NCBI GenBank assembly: GCA_037310415.1
Contig: CP147780.1
Location: 544,001 to 608,000 of the forward strand
Direction: 5' to 3'
Origin: Candidatus Atabeyarchaeum deiterrae
Lineage (GTDB): Archaea > Asgardarchaeota > Atabeyarchaeia > Atabeyarchaeales > Atabeyarchaeaceae
DNA length: 64,000 nt
The stretch's first letter is position 1, and the number at the start of each line of letters is the position of its first letter. Positions 2,742 to 24,849 of this stretch are shown here, in pieces. Under the pieces are notes generated by a model. The model saw only the letters and a program-made list of their open reading frames with translations. It was not told the DNA's origin and did not search any database. The position numbers and the translations under genes are program-made.

Positions 2742-3947
2742 TCACCCGTACATTCCGTTGCATGAGTCACTTCCAGATGTGGAGTAACCTAATACCTTCG
2801 ACACAGCCTTCTCAAAATCAGCTTGCTGCACTTTGTGGCGAAACTCTCTAATTGCAAACATGCCTGATTCGGTACATATGGATTTAATGTCAGCCCCCGT
2901 CGCACCGTCAGTGATCTTCACCATATTATTAAAGTCAACATCGTCGGTCAGACTCATTCTCCTGGTGTGGATTCGGAATATCTCAAGACGCGCATTCTCA
3001 TCTGGAAACGGAAACTCAATTACGCGATCAAAACGTCCAGGGCGAAGAAGTGCTGGGTCTAGTATATCGGGACGATTAGTCGCTCCTATTACTCTTACGT
3101 CCCCACGAGCATCGAAGCCATCAAGTACGCTTAGTAACTGCATTAGGGTCCTTTGAACCTCTCGATCACCACTTGTTGCAACTTCAAGTCTCCTGCTTGC
3201 AACGGCGTCGATTTCGTCTATGAAGACAATACTAGGTGACTTTTCTCTGGCGAGTTGGAAAACTTCTCTCACCAACCGAGCACCTTCACCTATGAATTTC
3301 TGGACAAATTCCGAACCAATCACTCTTAGAAAGGTGGATTTTGTTTCTCTTGCAACAGCTCTCGCGACTAAAGTTTTTCCCGATCCTGGGGGACCGCACA
3401 ACAGTACGCCGTTAGGCGGATCTATTCCGATCTCTTCAAATGCCTCAGGGTGTGTGAGTGGAAGTTCAACGGTCTCTCTGATTTCTAGTATCTGCTCATT
3501 CAGTCCACCAATATCGTTGTAAGTAACGGGGGGAGATACTTCGACTTCCATGCTGCGAACAAAAGGATCTTTGGTCTGAGGTAGAATCTCAACTATCGAG
3601 AGAGTTCTTTGGTTCAGGGCGACCCTAGTACCTGGAAACAGCGCGTTCTTGGGGATGCTCTTCGACACATATACGACGAAGTTTGGACCAGTGGAGCTTT
3701 TTACTACTGCTCGTCCATCTTCCATTATGTCGGTTAATTGAGCAGCAATCAAGGGTGGCTGCCTTGCCTTTTCGATCTCGGTTCTAAGTGAGTGCAGTTC
3801 TCTTTCGAGTCTCGTTCTTTCAGCATCGACTAACTGTTTCTCAGTTTCAAGTGAACGAACTTTTCTTTCAAGGTGTCTTGTGTAAGAGGACAAATATGAT
3901 TCCTCAACGTTGTTGTAGACTCTTTTCTTGGAACCTGATTCTATCAT
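2742..3947 (-). CDS. pan: proteasome-activating nucleotidase (AAA+)
   Basis: N-terminal coiled coil, [28 protein letters not shown]-terminal HbYX (MYG); likely start MIESG at 3947. Confidence 0.96.
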
Positions 3948-4131
3948 GTCAGGCAAAACGAAGCCTCCACAGGTCACGATGAGTAAGATTGGCATCGTGC
4001 CGATTACCAGAAAGTAGATAAACCCAACCTTATTAATTCTTTTGTTACTAAACGAAAAATCACGAGCTTGTCGATGAGACATTTCATGCGTGATGGTCGA
4101 TTCAGATTATGGCATTGGGAGGCAGACTCTC

Positions 4132-4665
4132 TTGAGGTGCGAGATCTGTGGGGAGGAAGTGGCTGAGAGGGGAACTATGATAGATGTCGAGGGAGCGAAG
4201 CTTTTCGTTTGCTGGCAATGCAGGAAATTCGGCGAAGAGGTTAAGAGACGACCAAGCAAGCCCTCTGCGCAATCCGTCCAGCGATCTGCAAAGACTCCAG
4301 TCCAGAACATAAGGAGGACTGTCAAACCAAGAGTTGAACGTGTGAGAGAGACAAGGCAAGCATCTCCAGACCTTGAATTAGTTGAGGATTATCCTCAGCG
4401 GATTAGGCGCGCACGTGAGTCGCTCAACCTAACTCAGGAAGACTTGGCTAAGAGAATAGGGGAGAGACTTTCGATAGTTCAGAAATTAGAGACGGGTAAG
4501 ATGTGGCCATCTGATACACTTGTCGAAAAATTAGGAAGGATTCTTCGACTAACGCTGAGAGCACCAGTTGAAGAGGAGTCAGTTCCCCATCAATACAAAC
4601 GAACTAGCTCGGAGTTGACTATTGGAGACATAGCCGAGCCTGTTGACAAGAAGAAAGCCGACTAA
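4132..4665 (+). CDS. mbf1: archaeal multiprotein bridging factor 1 (Zn ribbon + HTH)
   Basis: CEICG...VCWQC, IRRARESLNLTQEDLA, LTIGD; TTG start after GGAGG. Confidence 0.92.
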   Translation: MRCEICGEEVAERGTMIDVEGAKLFVCWQCRKFGEEVKRRPSKPSAQSVQRSAKTPVQNIRRTVKPRVERVRETRQASPDLELVEDYPQRIRRARESLNLTQEDLAKRIGERLSIVQKLETGKMWPSDTLVEKLGRILRLTLRAPVEEESVPHQYKRTSSELTIGDIAEPVDKKKAD

Positions 4666-5195
4666 GTGTCTTTTTTGATAACTTCCTTTCCTCTTGCGCG
4701 AGGTAGTATGCTGATCTTGGCTCCGGGATACTCCTTTTTGAATTCGTCACCTTGAAGCAGTTCGTGTAGGAAAACTGCCAAAGCTGAAACCTCACTATGA
4801 GGCTGATTCGTTATCGAAACATTCCAGTCAGCCAGCGAATAGAGTTCGCCTGGGACTTTCTGGCCTCCGACGACGATCAGCAATTCCTTATCGCAGGACC
4901 TAATCTCCTCAATTACATCGTGCAAGTCAAGCCCGTACATGGTTAAGTGGACTAGCTTCCCAGTTAGTCTCCAGTTACTTAGAAACGCCTTCCATGACTT
5001 CACATATTCAATTGTGAATTCGCCGCCCCAGTTTGAGATGACTTTGCGTACGCTGTCCTCGAATTTCGGATCCTTGTCACCCGAGAAGAACATTTCGTTG
5101 GCACCAAATGCCCGGGCAGCAAGAGCAACGTGAGTTGAGATTCTTGGATCTCGACCCTTTCTGTGACCCATTCTGAATACACAAATGTTCTTCAA
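4662..5195 (-). CDS. trm56: tRNA (cytidine56-2'-O)-methyltransferase aTrm56
   Basis: GHRKGRDPRISTHVALAARAFGA, VHLTMYG, NQPHSEV. Confidence 0.95.
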   Translation of the reverse strand: MKNICVFRMGHRKGRDPRISTHVALAARAFGANEMFFSGDKDPKFEDSVRKVISNWGGEFTIEYVKSWKAFLSNWRLTGKLVHLTMYGLDLHDVIEEIRSCDKELLIVVGGQKVPGELYSLADWNVSITNQPHSEVSALAVFLHELLQGDEFKKEYPGAKISILPRARGKEVIKKDT

Positions 5196-6703: not shown

Positions 6704-7021
6704 CTACACTATCTCGATCTCTATGTACACGTCTTCTGGTATTCTGATTCGCATTATCTGTCTCATAGTTCTCTCGTCGGCATCCAGATCTATCAGCCTT
6801 TTGTGAACGCGCATCTGCCACTTATCCCAAGTATGAGTGCCTTCTCCGCAGGGTGATTTCCTCGTGGGAACCAATAGACGCTTGGTGGGAAGAGGTACTG
6901 GTCCAGCTATGCGTGTCCCTGTTTTGATCGCAATATTCTTGACTTGCTTGCAAACATCATCGAGTTTTGCTGAGCTTGTGCTCGACAGCTTTATTTTCGC
7001 TTTTTGAACCATGATACCCAC
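6704..7021 (-). CDS. rpsJ: 30S ribosomal protein uS10
   Basis: [10 protein letters not shown]...[26 protein letters not shown]. Confidence 0.97.
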
Positions 7022-7072
7022 CAGTATCCATGCCTATACTCCCGTGAAGACCAAACATGAAAAGTTGGGGGA

Positions 7073-8389
7073 CTAGGTCTTATCAGCTTTCACGACATCT
7101 TTCACGATGCCAACAGCGACCGTGATCCCCATATCTCTTATCGCGAAACGCCCAAGCTGTGGAAAGTCAGCGAACTTCTCTATTACAAGGGGTCTCATAG
7201 GAATCAGCTTCACAACTGCATTGTCCTTTGCTTTGATGAAGTCTGGGTTGTCCTGTATCACTTGTCCTGTTCGTGGATCTATTTTGGACACTAGTTTCTC
7301 AAACTTGCAGGCTACAGTAGCAGTATGGGCGTGCAGGACTGGAGTGTAGCCAGCAGCTATGCTCGTGGGGTGTTGAATGACTACGATCTGTCCTGTAAAT
7401 TCCTTCACAACCGTCGGAGGATTGTTCGGAGAACCTGCGACGTGTCCTCTCCTTATATCTGCCCGATCGATGCCCCTAACGTTGAAGCCAATGTTGTCAC
7501 CAGGAACGGCCTGTTCCAATCGTTCGTGGTGCATCTCAATACTCTTGACTTCACCCTTGGCTCCTCCAGGCATGAAAATCAAAGTCTCTCCAGATTTGAG
7601 GATTCCTGTCTCGACGCGTCCCACTGGAACAGTGCCAGCTCCACTGATTGAGTACACGTCCTGAAGTGGGATTCTAAGTGGTTTGTCGATTGGCTTAGGC
7701 GGTACAACCAACGCGTCCAATGCCTGAACAATTGTTTGACCCTTATACCAAGCCATCTTGCTGCTAAGCTCCATCAGGTTTTCTCCCAGCCAAGCAGACA
7801 CTGGTATGAATGGAATCTTCTCAAGTTTATATCCTACAACCTTGAGTAGATCTGACATCTCCTTCTTTATTTCATCGTATCTGTCCTTGCTATAGTTGAC
7901 TGTCTGGTCATCCATTTTGTTTAAAGCGACGATTAGCTGACCCACGCCAAGTGTAAAGGCCAAGTATGCGTGTTCTCGTGTCTGCCCTCCAGGCCCGACT
8001 CCAGATTCGAATTCGCCTTTCTTTGCTGAGATCACCAGTATTGCGGCATCGGCCTGACTGGCTCCAGTTATCATATTCTTAACGAAGTCCCTGTGGCCAG
8101 GCGCATCAATGATTGTGAAATAATACTTGTCGGTCTGGAACTTCTGGAACATTATGTCTATGGTAACTCCTCTTTCTCGCTCTTCCTTGAGCCTATCCAT
8201 GACCCAGGCGATGTATTCCGATCCTTTGCCGATCTTCTCCGCTTCAGTTTTGAAAGTCTCTAGAGTACGTTTGTCGACGGCACCTTTCTTAACGAGAAGC
8301 TGACCACCAAGTGTACTCTTCCCATGGTCGATATGTCCGATCACTATCAAGTTAATGTGTGGTTTCTTTTCAGACATTTCTGTATCCAT
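7073..8389 (-). CDS. tuf: elongation factor 1-alpha
   Basis: [34 protein letters not shown]. Confidence 0.98.
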
Positions 8390-17692: not shown

Positions 17693-17907
17693 TGGCGGGC
17701 CCGAGGGGAATTTCGGCATATCCTCTTGTAATATGCTATCGAACCCCCGGCCACCGGGTTTCATTACGCTACCCTTGGATGGTTTGTTCTCTCTGGCATT
17801 AGTCGACGTTTAAAAGCCTCACCCTCTGAGGAGCAGTTCACTCCTCTAGAGTCCGGCGCTATAGGCAGACACTGTTTCTTCCTTCTACCTGACTGAGCTA
17901 CGGGCCC
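17693..17907 (-). tRNA. tRNA-Lys(UUU) interrupted by four introns (22/23, 30/31, 37/38, 59/60), CCA encoded
   Basis: Removing 17861-17884, 17818-17852, 17760-17810 and 17710-17737 gives a canonical 77-nt cloverleaf; each intron has BHB geometry. Confidence 0.9.
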
Positions 17908-18034
17908 AAGCAGGCCTCATACACCTGTATTGTCTATGGATAAAATGAATTCCTTATATTCTTTTCTCCTCTTTGGGCGTCTCATTCTTCGAAGCTTCAT
18001 GACCAAAAAGACGACCTCGTCTTACCTTCTCAGG

Positions 18035-18889
18035 TCAGTCTCGGATTGCTTTCCTGATAAGTGGTTCTATCTCCCACCAAGGCGCGATTCTCTTGACGAG
18101 AGGTTCACCGTTTATGCATACTCCCCTGCTCAGTCCACGTTCTAGAACAACTTGCCTATCGTCCGTATTGATGAAGTTTGCTTCAACCTTGTATTTCCCA
18201 ATGTTTCTTCTGACTTCGTCGGCTGACCAACCTGACCATAGACACTGGCTGTTGAAGTAGATGTCCACGACAGGCTTGCCACTTCCCTTGTACTTCTTAC
18301 ATTGCGGGTGAACTAGCTCCGGCTTCTCATTCGAGCCGGTATTCAGGTGGAGAAGCACTCGGCTTCCATCTCGATCAACGTCTTTGAAGCCCATCTTTCT
18401 AAACTGTGCCGCGGGCAAATATGCATAACCTCCGAGCCATTTATCGCCGTCGTAGGCTAGGATACTTACTCCTCCATAGTTTTTTCCCATTTCGACAGCT
18501 CTTTGCACGAGAGCCCTCGCCACACCGTGGCGCCAAAATGGTCTGAGAACCCACATGCAATTTATGAAAAGTGATCCGTTTCCTCTGACAGGCTCCAGAG
18601 CATGCTCGATTGGAACGTACTCTATCAGTCCCACCGGGAAGTTGCCGAGTGTTATGGTTTCCTTGAATTTTGCGTCTTTTTCGCCGAGCAACTCAATTGC
18701 CTTTGAGGAATCTTCGAGCGCAACCGAGATCCGTAATCCTTTCGCCATCATATTTCTAATCCACATTCTTCTGGTTTCCATTGGAGCTTCTAGGGCTTTT
18801 CTCCATTCGCGCGGAATATCTGGCTCATAGCATATTGCCTTAACATAGTCGAGTTCGTTGGGCGAAACCTCTTTGACTAGAATGGCTAT
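18035..18889 (-). CDS. GNAT acetyltransferase with C-terminal thioredoxin-like (YoaP-type) domain
   Basis: INCMWV...WRHGVARALV GNAT motif, QCLW C-domain; frame extends to an ATA at 18889 behind GGAGG. Confidence 0.8.
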   Translation of the reverse strand: MAILVKEVSPNELDYVKAICYEPDIPREWRKALEAPMETRRMWIRNMMAKGLRISVALEDSSKAIELLGEKDAKFKETITLGNFPVGLIEYVPIEHALEPVRGNGSLFINCMWVLRPFWRHGVARALVQRAVEMGKNYGGVSILAYDGDKWLGGYAYLPAAQFRKMGFKDVDRDGSRVLLHLNTGSNEKPELVHPQCKKYKGSGKPVVDIYFNSQCLWSGWSADEVRRNIGKYKVEANFINTDDRQVVLERGLSRGVCINGEPLVKRIAPWWEIEPLIRKAIRD

Positions 18890-19007
18890 ACTTCCTCCTG
18901 GCCTCTGATCGTGCAGTAATTCATTAACTACTGTCCGCTATAAAAGCCTAGTCGAACTTCGGCAGCCCCAACCCAATAATAACGATGTCTACAATCCTCA
19001 GACATTA

Positions 19008-19061
19008 CAAAAAAGGGCTTGTGGGTCTGTAAACGGGCATATTTGGGGTTCTAGTCTTTTC
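19008..19061. repeat. intergenic ~60-bp repeat, copy R1
   Basis: CAAAAAAGGGCTTGTGGGTCTGTAAACGGGCATATTTGGGGTTCTAGTCTTTTC aligns to R2-R4. Confidence 0.7.
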
Positions 19062-19502
19062 CCTAGCTCATTTTGCCCGTAATGGTACGGTTGCCAATAT
19101 GACCAACCGTCAGGCAGCGCGCGGAGTTGAGACGATATGCCTTCGTCCAAGATCCGCTATTGGAAGAATCCTCCGAAGCACAGAGCTAGGTCAAGGGACA
19201 GTTATCAGAGGCATAGACAGCATCTCACAAGGTATGCCAAGGCGCAACCTGCTTTGAAATCCACTTGAGTAACCATAACCTAGAGATGTTAGCTCGCACT
19301 AAGAGTATCCCTAAGGAAGAGGATACCGAAGAATACCATAGAAAAGCGTCTCATTCTCTTGTGCGTGCCCAAATCATCGACCGTAAAGAATATGTAAGTA
19401 GTCTTTGATATCACTTGGTGAAGTGCGCTGAAGCAAAGCTTAAGAAAGCCATCGAGACCATATACATCCTGACGGCGCACTAGGAGGGGCGGCGCGCGCG
19501 AG

Positions 19503-20366
19503 GTGACGATTGTGGTCTCCAAAAAACGGAGAATTGTGATCCCCACCCTTGCAGTTGGGTTAATAGTGGTTTTAGGTGTGGTCATAGCGCCCCTCGCACT
19601 CTATCCTAAGTGCGACATTGCTGGTCCGTATTATCACAAAATCTACTCTGCCACCTCGGTCAATGGTTTAAGTTGGACGGTCAATAATACCGTGATTTTT
19701 GATCATGCGTCTGTTCCTGGGGCCGTGTATTTCAACAGCAAGCTCTATCTCTATTTTGTTAATGCGGAGTGTGGTGAGAAATTGAGTGTGGCTATCAGCG
19801 ATAATTACGGTAATAGCTTTGCGGTGTATGACGTAGCGATTTCAGGGTCGAATAGCCCGCGTCCCGTCGATCCGAACCCAATAGTCGATGGCGGGCTAAT
19901 ACGGCTCACCTATCTCGGGAACTTAGGAGGAGACCCGGCTAATATTGTCACCGCCCACTCGTCCGATGGTATTAATTTTGTCGAAGATGCAATCCTATTC
20001 AGTGAAACCAGCATCACAGATCCGGATCTATTTCATTACAGCCCAAGTGAGTGGATTCTGTTCGTTGATCAAGGGAGCACTTTGTTAAAAGCCAATGGAA
20101 CTTCCATATCAACGCCGCTTGTGAAAGATAGCACCTTTAATTTTGCAGGCATACTGTGTTCGACACACTACATTAATAGCAAATTTCACACCTATTATCT
20201 CGGATCAAAAGGGATCTCAGTGGCGGAATATAATAGCAGCGGTTTGACAGTTCTAGCGGAAGATCTGATTACAGGATTTACCGGATTCATCGGAGATCCC
20301 ACCGTAGTAGTGTTTGGTCCTGGCAATTATCTCATGTATTTTAAGCAAACCGATATCCCACCGTAG
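19503..20366 (+). CDS. membrane-anchored beta-propeller protein (glycoside hydrolase/sialidase-like)
   Basis: N-terminal TM helix, repeated SxDG/Asp-box-like and DP motifs (SVNGLSW, SDNYGNSF, SSDGINF, GDPTVV). Confidence 0.6.
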   Translation: MTIVVSKKRRIVIPTLAVGLIVVLGVVIAPLALYPKCDIAGPYYHKIYSATSVNGLSWTVNNTVIFDHASVPGAVYFNSKLYLYFVNAECGEKLSVAISDNYGNSFAVYDVAISGSNSPRPVDPNPIVDGGLIRLTYLGNLGGDPANIVTAHSSDGINFVEDAILFSETSITDPDLFHYSPSEWILFVDQGSTLLKANGTSISTPLVKDSTFNFAGILCSTHYINSKFHTYYLGSKGISVAEYNSSGLTVLAEDLITGFTGFIGDPTVVVFGPGNYLMYFKQTDIPP

Positions 20367-20658
20367 TAGTATAGTTGTTAATATACTACCATATGTATTA
20401 GCAACTCTAATAGTATCGGTAACTAAACACCACCAACCAACCGTTTGTCTTGAATTAGCCCCTGCACCACTTCTTCGAGATCCAGCTTAGATGATTGAGA
20501 GTTCTTGTCCATGCCGAGTCTTCTACCTGATTCGGAGGCGTCATCCAGAAATCTGGGTCATTTACTGATAACCTGCTTTCCGTCAAAAGAGTCTTGTCTT
20601 TACCTGAAATAAGCAAAAGCTCGAGAACTGCTTGCTGCGAAATCGTCAAGTGCGCCTA

Positions 20659-20720
20659 TCGTCAAAAAAGAGGCTGCACGTCTCTAACCACACATATTTG
20701 TGGTTTTAGTTTTTTCTGTG
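20659..20720. repeat. intergenic ~60-bp repeat, copy R2
   Basis: TCGTCAAAAAAGAGGCTGCACGTCTCTAACCACACATATTTGTGGTTTTAGTTTTTTCTGTG. Confidence 0.78.
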
Positions 20721-20928
20721 AGCCCGAAAATGCTGATTTACAGACCTCCTGTTCTTCAACACTTCCGCAACTGTGAAAGCGATCTTCCTCATGAACTCCG
20801 AGTTCCCCGCACTTTCCAAGTGCTTTTGGGTTGAACTCGAAACTCCTAGCCTTGGCAAACTTGACCTAAATACACGTGAGAAATGGAAGCGAGTGCTTGC
20901 GTGACCCCGCATCGATCGTATCCTTACG

Positions 20929-21132
20929 TCACAAGCTCCGTTGGTTCTTGAGTATTTCTGAGTGCAGTTTTCCACCAGTCGCCCAATTAGTCTTGGGAGT
21001 CTCGTAGATGATAACGTGAACAGCGTCTCTGGGGACGCCCAAATCTTCAAGCACCTTCGTCATTCCCTCAGCTATCTTCCTCTTGCTGTCTTCAGCCATG
21101 CCAGCCCACATCGTAACTTGTACCAAGGGCAA
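20929..21132 (-). CDS. 4-oxalocrotonate tautomerase family protein
   Basis: Pro-1 (MPLVQV), KRKIAEGMT, NWATGG. Confidence 0.92.
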   Translation of the reverse strand: MPLVQVTMWAGMAEDSKRKIAEGMTKVLEDLGVPRDAVHVIIYETPKTNWATGGKLHSEILKNQRSL

Positions 21133-21222
21133 TCTAAAGACCTCAAGTTGATATCACCTTTCCAGCATATTAATGCAATCCCCTAGCATCTTGCGGCGCC
21201 TACATATGTCTGTTCATTCATA

Positions 21223-21867
21223 GTGTTAGCTGCAATAGAGTTGATTGTAGTGGCAGACAAGGAGCGCATTGTAAGGAAGGGTTATGATGAGATAGCCCAA
21301 GGTTACCACATTACTAGAAGCAAATTTGATCATGGAAAGGAATTGATGGAATTTGTCGCTCTGCTACCTAAGAATGCCAAGGTCTTGGATGCAGGTTGCG
21401 GTGATGGAGTTCCTGTTGCTGCATTCTTGGTGGAATGTGGTTTTGATGTGACAGGGATTGATTTCTCCGAGGAAATGCTCAAGCTTGCAAGAAAGAATGT
21501 GCCAAAAGCTGCATTCATCAAACAGGATATGAGTAAACTGGATTTTGCAGTCAACTCCTTTGATGGCTTGACTGCTTTCTACTCCATCATTCACGTACCA
21601 AGAGAAAAGCACTTCTCGTTGTTTGAGAGTTTCCATAGAATATTGAAGCCTAAGGGAATAATGTTTGTCTGTATGGGTGCAGATGAATGGGAAGCAACTG
21701 ATGAGTATCTGGGGACAACAATGTTCTGGAGTCAATACAACCCTGAGAAATCTTTGCACCTTGTGAAAATTGCTGGTTTTGAAATAATCTCCGACCAGAT
21801 TCTGATTAGAGGTGGAGAAAAACACTACTGGATTATGGCCAAGAACAAGAAATATCATGAAACGTGA
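21223..21867 (+). CDS. class I SAM-dependent methyltransferase
   Basis: VLDAGCGDG, GIDFSEEML, ILKPKG. Confidence 0.92.
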   Translation: MLAAIELIVVADKERIVRKGYDEIAQGYHITRSKFDHGKELMEFVALLPKNAKVLDAGCGDGVPVAAFLVECGFDVTGIDFSEEMLKLARKNVPKAAFIKQDMSKLDFAVNSFDGLTAFYSIIHVPREKHFSLFESFHRILKPKGIMFVCMGADEWEATDEYLGTTMFWSQYNPEKSLHLVKIAGFEIISDQILIRGGEKHYWIMAKNKKYHET

Positions 21868-22016
21868 AGTAGAGAACGCAACTTGACACTGAGCAAACTA
21901 CCACGCATAGACTGCGAATATCGTTTTCCGTCGCAGACGCGCTTATAGTGTCTTGGCCGAGTTCCCGTGAGTCTACTTGAACATGCTTGTTTCATTGGTA
22001 ACTTCTGTTTGAGTCT

Positions 22017-22082
22017 GGTCGCCAAAAAAAGGGGACTGTAGGTCTCTAAGCACACATGTTTGGGATCCTAGTTTTTTCTGTG
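22017..22082. repeat. intergenic ~60-bp repeat, copy R3
   Basis: GGTCGCCAAAAAAAGGGGACTGTAGGTCTCTAAGCACACATGTTTGGGATCCTAGTTTTTTCTGTG. Confidence 0.8.
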
Positions 22083-22205
22083 TTCGCGAACTTGCGTTCT
22101 CACGTACTCCTCTCTCTCCATTACCTCATTACCGACAGGGCAAACGGTCGGGGCGGCGTACCGTCGTTTTCTCTGTGAACTCTCCTTAAGAACAAGCACA
22201 AATCA

Positions 22206-23150
22206 TCATAGCCTGGATAGTAGCTCAAATGTGTTTTCTTTGAATATTCTTTCTTTTTCAAAATCAGAGAAATAGGCGCAAGAAACTAAACTCTCGACCG
22301 ACATTTTGGTTACAATCGCAGGAGCATAGGGAAAGTCACTACCGAACAGAATATGCATAGAATCAACAAACTCTCGGAGTCCGCACAAGGCAAACGTACT
22401 GGTTGACAAAGCAGTGTCATAATAAAGCTGCCGAAAATGAGATACTGCTCCTTTCGGGGCCGTTCTTCCACTATTGGGTATAGTAAGACCGGTTAAATCA
22501 ATCCGGAACGCAAGAAAGGGAATCGTCCCCCCGGCATGTGAAAGTATGAACTTAATATTGGGAAATCTTTTCAATGTACCCGAATAAACTAAATTCGTAG
22601 CTGCCCGAGTGGTGTCGAAAGGAAATTCCAACATGGGCACGGGATAAGTGAAATTGGTCTGCGTTTGGCTTGGACTTGTCGGGTGGATAAACACTACCGC
22701 CTTTCGGCGATTCAGTTCTGCCATCAATTCATCGAATCGAGAATCTCCAAGGTACACTCCGCTATAATTTGTGAGCAACGCAACGCCATCCAACTCGAGT
22801 TCATCGAGTGCGCGATTCGTTTCAGAAAGCGATTCTGAGAGATATGGGAGAGGGATTGTCGCAAACGCTCCAAAACGATCTGGGTGATCTGCCACGATAC
22901 GCTCCATTTCGTTATTTACCATTTCTGCAAGGTGGACGGCAAAATCTCTGTCTCCAAAATCAACGCTGGGGCTCGAAAGAGAAAGAAAGGCCTTTCCGAT
23001 GTGGTTGCGGTCCATCACATTCAAGGATAACTCTGGATTCCACTGGGGAAAAACCACGCCATCTCCTCCTTTTATGGCGCGTCCGGCCAGTTCGTGGATA
23101 TAATCAGAGGGTAAAATATGGTGGTGCACGTCGTATATTTGCTGTGGAAT
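22206..23150 (-). CDS. amidohydrolase-2 family (ACMSD/aromatic decarboxylase-like)
   Basis: DVHHH, FIHPT, LSHAGG, FGSDFPY; frame extends to an ATT at 23150 behind GGAG. Confidence 0.9.
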   Translation of the reverse strand: MPQQIYDVHHHILPSDYIHELAGRAIKGGDGVVFPQWNPELSLNVMDRNHIGKAFLSLSSPSVDFGDRDFAVHLAEMVNNEMERIVADHPDRFGAFATIPLPYLSESLSETNRALDELELDGVALLTNYSGVYLGDSRFDELMAELNRRKAVVFIHPTSPSQTQTNFTYPVPMLEFPFDTTRAATNLVYSGTLKRFPNIKFILSHAGGTIPFLAFRIDLTGLTIPNSGRTAPKGAVSHFRQLYYDTALSTSTFALCGLREFVDSMHILFGSDFPYAPAIVTKMSVESLVSCAYFSDFEKERIFKENTFELLSRL

Positions 23151-23406
23151 ACTCCTTCACTCTCCCGAGTCGAACGATATTACTGATGCTTTAACGCTAT
23201 CGGGAATGTAGATTTGATTCCGAATACCGTTAGGTGCAGCAATTTTGACTAATTTTCATAATATCCGCGCTTCAGATTAACCTAGCGGTATAAGTATGAG
23301 TTCGTGCCCTTTCCAATCCTCCACACATTCAAGCGGAAACAAAAGCTTGGAAGAAGAAGAGTCAATTTCAATAGACTCATTCTGACGGAAATTCTTATTT
23401 GGCATT

Positions 23407-23467
23407 GGTCGCCGAAAAAGAAGGCTGTAGGTCTGTAAGAACACAGACTTCCGCTTCTAGTCTTTTC
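23407..23467. repeat. intergenic ~60-bp repeat, copy R4
   Basis: GGTCGCCGAAAAAGAAGGCTGTAGGTCTGTAAGAACACAGACTTCCGCTTCTAGTCTTTTC. Confidence 0.78.
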
Positions 23468-23620
23468 GATAAGCGAGACTAATCAAGACCACACCTATGG
23501 TGGGCGAATGGCGATGATAACTGAACGCTCGGCTTCCCTGAATGCCTCGATCTCATGGCCGACGAAGGCTCAGAAAAAGATAAAAACTGTTTCAACCCCA
23601 GTATGAATCACGAATTGTGT

Positions 23621-23772
23621 GCCCTGGTGGTGCAAGCCTTCTCCGAAGGTCCGAAGAAGACCACGAAGCGGCTAACATTTGGGTCTGTCACACCCAAGAC
23701 GCGGGTTCGAGAAAGATCACCGCAATGCCTGCTGACGGCATACGATGATTTTATAAAATCCCGCCCAGGGCG
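23621..23772 (+). tRNA. tRNA-Asp(GUC) with two non-canonical introns (14/15: 23635-23667; 59/60: 23712-23758)
   Basis: GCCCTGG/CCAGGGC acceptor, TGGGT-CTGTCAC-ACCCA anticodon arm, GCGGG/CCCGC T stem; inserts have 4+3 BHB spacing. Confidence 0.85.
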
Positions 23773-23880: not shown

Positions 23881-24849
23881 TCATCCTTCTTGCTGCTCAT
23901 TTCTTCCTCGGGATCTTGCTCTTGCCCAGTAGACTTTTGTCCAGTATCCCCGCTCTGGAACAGTGATACCAAGTTTCTTGCATTTTCTGCCCGTGGACTT
24001 GGTGTGTGAAACGTGGTATTTGACTGCGATTTGCCTCAATGGCATTTCCTGAACTAGTTTCTCCAAATCCTCCTTTGTGATTTTTCTCCATTCACGTTGA
24101 AGCATATTTCTTTTCCGAACCTGTTCAATCGTGCAATCCTCTTTAGCCCTCGACAACAATTCTTCTTGTTCGCAGGGGGACCAACGTTTTCTAGGCATAC
24201 TATTCGCGTAGTTCTTCATCATCTTGTTAAATAGTTCCGGACCCAGACACATCATGTAGTTGGTTCCATTTAGCTTTCTGCCGTAGATTTCTTTTTGGCG
24301 TTTGTCCACGTAGATCTTGTAGGGGAGATCGAATCTTTTCTTGACTTGTCCTAAGAAACGCTCGCTGCCTGATGAGATCATCGTCGTGTTTCGTCTTCCG
24401 TCGCCATCAAAGTATCCTAGGAGGAATGCGAGTTCTAGACTAGTGCGGGGTAGCTTGGGATACTCGATGGTTTTTGATTTTCTGAATTTAAGACCGTGTC
24501 TGATCAGGTCGTTGCCCACCTCCATACAGGTGAACCTGATCATTGCTTGCCTGTGTCCTGCCTCATCGGTCGGGTATTCCTTCTTGCTTTTATTGAGCTG
24601 TAGGGCATCGCAGAACTTGTCGATGGTGTCTTCGTCTCTTATTTTGAGCTTTAGCCGGATTTCTGCCCTATTTGGGTATTCCACTAGGTAGCCGTCAGCG
24701 TAGAGGAATCCGAGCCAGTATGCTTTCTCTTTGGTGTTGATTGTCTCGAAGAAGTTGATCTTTAGATTCGAATGTACTGTATGTGCCGCCCACACTTTGT
24801 ACCAATGCGCCGTTGAGGCGTTTCTATGAGGTTGTCTGAGCGTCTTCAT
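23881..24849 (-). CDS. free-standing double-motif LAGLIDADG endonuclease-like protein with C-terminal HTH
   Basis: AYWLGFLYADG and AFLLGYFDGDG motifs; C-terminal LRQIAVKY...PERGYW. Confidence 0.88.
   Translation of the reverse strand: MKTLRQPHRNASTAHWYKVWAAHTVHSNLKINFFETINTKEKAYWLGFLYADGYLVEYPNRAEIRLKLKIRDEDTIDKFCDALQLNKSKKEYPTDEAGHRQAMIRFTCMEVGNDLIRHGLKFRKSKTIEYPKLPRTSLELAFLLGYFDGDGRRNTTMISSGSERFLGQVKKRFDLPYKIYVDKRQKEIYGRKLNGTNYMMCLGPELFNKMMKNYANSMPRKRWSPCEQEELLSRAKEDCTIEQVRKRNMLQREWRKITKEDLEKLVQEMPLRQIAVKYHVSHTKSTGRKCKKLGITVPERGYWTKVYWARARSRGRNEQQEG

Follow-up and report, generated by a model that had tools for sequence, protein, structure and literature searches.

An accessory island between tRNA-Lys and tRNA-Asp

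We analysed a window of 64,000 nt from the genome of Candidatus Atabeyarchaeum deiterrae (G000; 2,756,679 bp). Positions without a prefix refer to the window or, where they exceed 64,000, to the whole of G000. In this window an accessory island lies between a tRNA-Lys and a tRNA-Asp gene, and within it small groups of genes are separated by four copies of a short repeat, the subject of this study. Comparisons were made with the sister-genus genome CP147779.1 ('SRVP18_Atabeyarchaeia-1 chromosome', G001), with a third genome of the same family (G002), and with further copies on metagenome contigs of four Joint Genome Institute (JGI) samples, whose loci and copies carry L- and M-numbers. The two tRNA genes are divergent, and the whole array therefore lies between their promoters. 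Both G001 and G002 have conserved the tRNA-Lys gene, and G001 also the tRNA-Asp region. Beyond the island, rpoB and rpoH lie to one side, and a LAGLIDADG gene, a tRNA-Arg gene and a PIN-type ATPase gene to the other.

The anatomy of the repeat was read along the minus strand of the window, on which the full unit has the order F, O, C, G. F is a flank of 30 to ~190 nt with three subtypes, and O is the motif AGAAAAGA. C is a core of ~47 nt that starts with CTAGAAC and ends in a T-run, and G, found in about one third of the copies, consists of GGCGACC and ~30 further nt. Copies on the plus strand are accordingly written G-C-O. The island is laid out as follows:

17693..17907, minus strand: tRNA-Lys gene with several introns, the anchor of the array; exons visible at the 5' end (GGGCCCGTAGCTCAG...) and the 3' end (...CGGGCCCGCCA)
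17952..17959, minus strand: TATA box of the tRNA-Lys promoter, ATATAAGG; repeat homology stops exactly at its upstream edge
17960..18014, minus strand: solo half-site F-O, with O (AGAAAAGA) at 17960-17967 and F to ~18014; core C absent
18035..18781, minus strand: GNAT acetyltransferase (PF00583), cargo of cassette 1
19000..19064, plus strand: repeat copy A, G-C-O, between the divergent GNAT and 287-aa genes
19503..20366, plus strand: 287-aa protein, no Pfam family, cargo of cassette 2
20654..20719, plus strand: repeat copy B
20720..20849, plus strand: long flank F of copy B, containing an inverted partial core at 20723-20746
20929..21132, minus strand: 4-oxalocrotonate-tautomerase-family protein (PF01361, E = 6e-11), cargo of cassette 3
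21223..21867, plus strand: S-adenosylmethionine (SAM)-dependent methyltransferase (PF13649, E = 5e-21), cargo of cassette 3
21985..22081, plus strand: repeat copy C, with a weak extension G (21985-22014) and the core (22015-22081)
22206..23129, minus strand: Amidohydro_2 hydrolase, cargo of cassette 4
23366..23470, plus strand: repeat copy D, with extension G (23366-23403) and core (23404-23470) and no flank F; end of the array on the tRNA-Asp side
23621..23772, plus strand: tRNA-Asp gene with introns; exons visible; transcribed away from the array

ARAGORN reported no tRNA in the window, and Rfam only two single-intron tRNAs. Both tools thus missed the multi-intron tRNA-Lys and tRNA-Asp genes, from which it follows that automated tRNA counts for this lineage are too low.

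Copies and distribution of the repeat family

A repeat search of the window returned one family with four plus-strand copies (19009-19078, 20664-20733, 22026-22095, and 23415-23484), whose starts are 1655, 1362, and 1389 nt apart. A hidden Markov model (HMM) built from these copies and run over the whole of G000 recovered all four with E-values of 1e-16 to 3e-19, and only two additional copies, E and F, at 1,840,661 and 1,842,600, 1.9 kb from each other. The wider range of nhmmer E-values for the four copies is 1e-14 to 1e-19. These E-values, and the finding of only two further copies in a 2.76-Mb genome, exclude chance. The four co-oriented repeats reported between the two tRNA genes in a preliminary description of this DNA were thereby confirmed. 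The copy starts given there differ from those of the repeat search because the GGTCGCC prefix was included. The full unit is larger than the ~60 bp given there, with F of up to ~190 nt and G of ~35 nt. Conserved blocks of the repeat are AAAAAG, GTAGGTCT, and TTCTAGTCTTTTC, and many copies have the GGTCGCC prefix. The core ends in CTTCTTTTTT on the minus strand and in TCTTTTC on the plus strand. One F subtype (copies B, C, 5559, and 8891) holds an inverted partial core, which yields an imperfect palindrome of ~70 nt centred on O. In DNA folds a long hairpin was obtained for G1_5559 only.

The census gave 6 copies in G000, 7 in G001, 2 in G002, and 8 plus one half-site on the metagenome contigs. 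With a covariance model the unit was detected in 3/3 genomes of the family and in 0/148 other genomes sampled from the phylum, and apart from one stray match a GTDB-wide pattern scan found matches in Atabeyarchaeia-1 only. In searches across related genomes, as proposed earlier, the family was found only in Atabeyarchaeia. An attP on a virus or plasmid was looked for in two pattern scans of viral contigs, neither of which found a copy. Within each array all copies have one orientation, despite flanking genes that point both ways. Mean identity between copies was 68.8% within and 69.4% between genomes, and most nearest neighbours came from another genome. This lack of clustering by genome argues against local duplication and would favour movement or ancient shared variants. 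Copy D is 86.5% identical to M27 over 89 nt. The main text of PMC11529989 (2024), which treats mobile elements of these two genomes, G000 and G001, and lists four integrated elements for G000, does not mention the repeats.

Half-sites with precise breakpoints

At the tRNA-Lys gene, repeat homology is restricted to F and O. The solo F-O is identical to the F-O of copy M29a at 26/28 positions and, past the breakpoint, at 8/20; its F and that of L051 share 80% identity across 65 nt. In all three genomes (G000, G001, and G002) F-O adjoins the tRNA-Lys TATA box directly upstream. Compared with repeat flanks, the tRNA-Lys upstream regions matched at 20-26/28 positions up to AGAAAAGA and at 7-10/20 past the breakpoint. 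To the right of the breakpoint, repeats compared with repeats gave 11-20/20 and tRNA sites compared with one another 17-19/20. The F allele of G002 is a different one, with 24-25/28 matches to copies 12123 and M26 versus 20-21/28 to the tRNA sites of G000 and G001. Despite this other allele, the breakpoint in G002 falls at the same nucleotide as in G000 and G001.

F-O is thus common to the repeats and the tRNA-Lys upstream region, and neither C nor G is significantly similar to promoter or leader sequence. Three further explanations of this partial homology were tried and rejected. F-O as a general tRNA promoter motif was ruled out by its single occurrence in G000. An origin of core C by divergence from the tRNA-Lys promoter or leader was rejected since the family HMM had no match at the promoter. 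So was insertion into a copy of the promoter whose displaced TATA region would now be G, because comparisons of G with the sequence after O were no different from shuffles. A purine-rich stretch of the O-like kind precedes the TATA-like box of tRNA-Asp, and a promoter role for O would fit this arrangement.

The second locus in G000, at 1.84 Mb among CBS and TPR genes, has the structure X|AGACTAG-C ... F-O|Y, where X and Y stand for the DNA on either side. Core homology begins at AGACTAG, 37 nt past the CBS gene. After copy F stands a solo F-O that is identical to that of copy 8891 at 53/66 positions; it ends in AAGACT and is followed by unrelated DNA. An arrangement X-O-C ... F-O-Y is the expected product of inserting C-G-genes-F units by exchange at O.

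Cassette content differs between genomes

The gap between tRNA-Lys and tRNA-Asp in G001 is 11.4 kb long and contains six copies, all co-oriented relative to the flanks. Its cargo is unrelated to that of G000 and comprises a 3-hydroxyacyl-CoA dehydrogenase (3HCDH), an Rce1-like protease, an MNT/HepT toxin-antitoxin pair, a luciferase-like monooxygenase, and several unknowns. The GNAT, the 287-aa protein, and the amidohydrolase of G000 were not found anywhere in G001 or G002. An exact-protein look-up of the GNAT for strain variants returned no record. Of the cargo named in the preliminary description, GNAT, methyltransferase, and amidohydrolase were borne out by Pfam and the tautomerase by PF01361; the protein labelled 'propeller' had no Pfam match, which leaves that label tentative.

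Homologues of the amidohydrolase were found on other contigs with amino-acid identities of 94%, 84%, and 80% (94.5%, 84%, and 81% at the nucleotide level). They adjoin repeats of the family, and their neighbours differ from those in G000. In L051 (94.5% nucleotide identity) homology to G000 stops 33 nt past the amidohydrolase stop codon, where a different F subtype, O, and CTAGAA follow, and then directly an unrelated GNAT gene. In L052 F-O-C follows the amidohydrolase gene after 45 nt. L050 has three further co-oriented copies, around DUF6114, around genes for an aldo-keto reductase, a catalase-peroxidase, and an amidase, and around MtrA-like genes. The variation in cassettes that the preliminary description had proposed to look for was therefore seen both between genera, at the tRNA-Lys/tRNA-Asp gap, and in a close relative, at the neighbours of the amidohydrolase.

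The CBS/TPR locus also differs: the syntenic locus of G001 has no repeats, no 447-aa gene, and no TPR gene. Between the CBS and AHSA1 genes of G001 (g1syn 3941-4954) we observed ~1 kb with only overlapping short open reading frames (ORFs), in the place that the two-copy cassette locus takes up in G000. In G001 the AHSA1-family homologue (G001:C1:2134652-2135050, L031) has an in-frame TGA.

Recombinases, folding and motifs

The preliminary description had noted that no recombinase is present in the window, and this held; the nearest tyrosine recombinase is ~65 kb away, outside the window. G000 as a whole has tyrosine recombinases at 497, 1009, and 2039 kb, a serine recombinase at 1347 kb, and a Y1 transposase at 1377 kb. 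Candidates for an acting enzyme are a 304-aa Xer-like and a 434-aa tyrosine recombinase, the serine recombinase, and the 322-aa LAGLIDADG protein. ORFs flanking the copies in L011, L029, and L004 included no recombinase. The association with an integrase or transposase that had been suggested as a check was therefore not borne out near any array. For an integron integrase, the best TIGR02249 score in G000, G001, and G002 was 61 bits, against a cut-off of 265.

Pairs of R''/R' boxes (RYYYAAC...GTTRRRY) 40-140 nt apart were absent from both strands of 17900-23700, where shuffled sequences gave 1.2. In the repeat, AAC...GTT triplets are only 14 nt apart, and many copies have AAG...CTT. The self-complementary ends described earlier do exist (AAAAG...CTTTT), as a weak 9-bp pairing rich in G-T. 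RNAalifold returned no structure on 12 copies, and -0.07 kcal/mol with no compensatory pairs on 16. A central 7-6-7 palindrome is present in about half of the copies, and its 7-bp helix was not clearly better than in shuffles. A structured RNA or attC-like hairpin was rejected, since single-sequence RNA and DNA folds were inconsistent (mostly z = -0.4 to -2.4) and alignment folds negligible. A known RNA family was rejected as well, with no Rfam match at gathering or E-value thresholds.

We also considered flank F as the relic of the C-terminus of a protein gene, and rejected this after tblastn found no full-length source gene in G000. Differences between copies B and 5559 are distributed over codon phases as 14/8/5, which by a rough hand estimate (p ~0.1) is not significant; the frame with the fewest third-position changes in this comparison is the one ending at the TAG in the unit. 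With respect to the adjacent genes, a T-run is downstream of and co-oriented with a gene at copies B, C, E, and F, and not at A and D.

Repeats as proposed cassette junction sites

We hypothesize that the repeats are att-type junction sites of an integrase-less cassette array between the tRNA-Lys and tRNA-Asp promoters, a reading to which we assign a probability of about 0.55. The observations behind it are the anatomy and census of the family, cassettes that vary among close relatives as well as between genera, mosaic breakpoints at precise positions, copies of constant orientation, and arrays with no recombinase nearby. From the sequences we further infer circular cassette intermediates, site-specific in preference to homologous exchange, a direction of array growth, and a promoter-preserving role of F-O. 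The preliminary description had proposed recombination sites of a cassette-accretion system, integron-like and distinct from canonical attC. This proposal is favoured by the syntenic island in G001, the changes of neighbours, the precise half-sites, and the constant orientation.

In the proposed mechanism cassettes of 0.6-2.6 kb with one to three genes, each of the form C-G-gene(s)-F, would be inserted serially between the tRNA-Lys and tRNA-Asp promoters. Exchange would take place at or beside O, between an F-O-C site carried by the cassette and a resident O, and a putative enzyme would act on these sites in trans. The product would have F-O-C on one side of the inserted cassette and F-O fused to resident sequence on the other. 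At tRNA-Lys the incoming DNA would re-supply the purine-rich element just upstream of the TATA box. Because the incoming F-O would replace this element, the tRNA-Lys promoter is proposed to stay intact.

Several observations weigh against the hypothesis of junction sites. None of the arrays has a recombinase gene within it or close by, and the matches to PF00589, PF00239, and PF01797 are all distant. The junction in L051 breaks after CTAGAA and not after AGA, and the G001 array has no copy at its tRNA-Asp edge. A classical tyrosine recombinase needs identical overlap regions, for which the central spacer-like segment is awkward, as it varies between copies. Finally, orthologous amidohydrolase cassettes carry different F subtypes. 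F is therefore not strictly inherited with the gene, and either homologous exchange between units also occurs or it could be the whole mechanism.

Alternative explanations

The latter possibility requires no dedicated recombinase. F and C-G would be portable homology arms, cassettes would be swapped or added by homologous recombination or gene conversion, and the repeats would persist by mediating the exchange; the exchange could be triggered by DNA uptake or by a double-strand break, for which the neighbouring LAGLIDADG endonuclease might be responsible. The mixed F subtypes on amidohydrolase cassettes and the lack of recombinases near the arrays are as expected under such exchange, and so is the flank F of copy B: with the core sequence next to it, this flank matches the corresponding stretch of G001 copy 5559 at 78-80% identity over 178 nt. 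A LAGLIDADG gene stands beside the array in G000 and in G001, two are near the copies in L029, and the family is mobile in G001 and G002. However, independent junctions with two F alleles lose homology at one and the same nucleotide, where breakpoints left by homologous recombination would be scattered. Moreover, no LAGLIDADG gene lies near the E/F locus or other arrays, and G000 contains only one. We therefore regard homologous arms as a rather unlikely account of the whole. Less probable again is regulatory punctuation, in which the repeat would be a bidirectional terminator or insulator, or a short RNA gene, that travels with acquired genes and has no part in their insertion. T-runs do occur on both strands (CTTCTTTTTT on the minus, TCTTTTC on the plus strand), copies E and F begin 37-39 nt past stop codons, with E as the first T-run after the CBS gene, and copy C sits between convergent genes. 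Yet orientation follows the array and not the genes: copy A is upstream of both its neighbours, between divergent starts, and copy D is upstream of tRNA-Asp, and for these reasons a terminator role alone would hardly explain the copies. The ~50 conserved nt are also far above the need of an archaeal T-run terminator, no Rfam match or conserved fold points to an RNA gene, and the solo F-O half-sites would stay unexplained.

The preliminary description had offered the ends of a non-autonomous element as its other option. Remnants of a miniature inverted-repeat transposable element (MITE), or of one like a palindrome-associated transposable element (PATE), with a preference for intergenic A-rich targets, could account for the imperfectly complementary ends (AAAAAG(A)...(T)CTTTT) and for the 7-6-7 palindrome in about half of the copies, and G000 does encode one Y1 HUH transposase. 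The copies, however, number only 6-7 per genome, co-oriented in two or three clusters or islands, with no clear terminal inverted repeats and no consistent target duplication beyond AGA. Few copies at few clustered loci, and the lack of such repeats and duplications, make transposon ends the less likely of the two options. With no longer parent element in G000, no copy on the viral contigs, and the homology of F-O to the tRNA-Lys promoter unexplained, we consider this origin very unlikely. A canonical integron cassette array without an integrase, that is, a cluster of attC sites lacking integron-integrases (CALIN), appears to us the most improbable of these explanations. Short gene cassettes are indeed bounded here by two or more co-oriented sites within less than 4 kb of one another, and the cargo (GNAT, toxin-antitoxin pairs, small unknown proteins) is typical. 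Integrons, mostly CALINs, are moreover enriched in Asgard genomes (Ghaly et al. 2022, PMC9668308). Against this stand the absence of R''/R' pairs from both strands of the array, the change of AAC/GTT to AAG/CTT in many copies, the lack of a conserved hairpin, integrase scores below the cut-off in all three genomes, and copies that are no more alike within than between genomes.

Comparison with known systems

Junction sites of the proposed kind resemble integron arrays and CALINs in several respects. Co-oriented sites of ~60 nt recur every 0.7-2.6 kb with one to three accessory genes each, the cargo includes GNAT, toxin-antitoxin, methyltransferase, and unknown genes, and hypervariable content occupies a fixed chromosomal position, with a hybrid half-site at the anchor that is topologically like attI. 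They differ in that the sites are conserved in sequence and not in structure, without R''/R' boxes, hairpin, or IntI. Genes point both ways, a tRNA promoter serves as the anchor in place of intI-attI, and site variants are common to several genomes instead of being homogenised within one.

Integrative elements and their integrase-less derivatives, the cis-mobilizable elements (CIMEs), accrete in tandem at tRNA genes or gene 3' ends, and this includes archaeal tRNA-targeting elements. The island would share with them the serial insertion at one site, incoming DNA that restores the target, and perhaps direct repeats that come in part from the target. Its target, however, is a promoter-proximal upstream element and not a tRNA body or gene 3' end, its units are cassette-sized, no array has an integrase, and the larger part of the repeat (C-G) does not stem from the target. 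The pdif modules of Acinetobacter plasmids depend on Xer and have 28-bp sites, 11-6-11 palindromes of alternating orientation. There, too, short sites bound gene modules and a host recombinase acts in trans, as is proposed for the enzyme here, whereas the present units are ~60 nt long and co-oriented, and only about half of them contain the 7-6-7 palindrome.

As a broader and more tentative proposal, which we hold to be possible and not probable, Atabeyarchaeia may possess a lineage-specific integron analogue. O and core C would be recognised by a putative trans-acting enzyme that captures and shuffles cassettes at the tRNA-Lys promoter, the CBS locus, and arrays delimited by tails of a RuBisCO-like gene, and each cassette would repair whichever promoter or gene end its insertion interrupts. 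How the abundant horizontally acquired DNA enters the large, gene-rich genomes of Asgard archaea is poorly understood. The locus offers a concrete, testable capture site, with a crossover motif beside an essential tRNA promoter, visible turnover of cassettes, and a module that recurs beside other arrays. If an enzyme is tied to it, the system would count as a second and independent way of capturing genes in integron style, and as a handle for tracking the flow of accessory genes in wetland Asgard populations.

RuBisCO-like-tail arrays and the LAGLIDADG gene

In a different accessory island of G000 (G000:C1:2640700-2664800), the partitions are decaying copies of a RuBisCO-like gene's final ~35 codons (...KWGAGKTGFQM). 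In G001, L026, and L029 the repeat described here lies ~65-120 nt downstream of a 3'-end fragment of this gene. RuBisCO-like fragments were located at:

L043 7994-8190
L026 1179-1327
L029 4395-4559

The two kinds of array occur in the same organism, hold small accessory packets, and have no recombinase nearby. They differ in their delimiters, which are decaying gene tails in one, and in the other non-coding, with only F-O matching the target. A module common to tRNA-Lys-type and RuBisCO-like-tail arrays hints that one machinery may lie behind them.

Beside the array in G000 stands one further gene:

23881..24849, minus strand: free-standing LAGLIDADG endonuclease-like gene (PF14528)

This gene is single-copy in G000, and the mobile family has 5-6 copies in each of G001 and G002; the two near the repeat copies in L029 are at 1840-2760 and 6757-8016. 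We treat its position beside the array as a lead and not as evidence of a link between the two. The extra LAGLIDADG copies of G001 (G001:C1:446665, 464848, 783228, and 825128) are lineage-specific insertions between syntenic genes. Beside a G001 LAGLIDADG insertion, part of a conserved gene is present as a direct duplication of 406 nt with 83% identity (L049 6564-6966 and 8692-9096; G001:C1:826563-829095), which may be another target-duplicating insertion.

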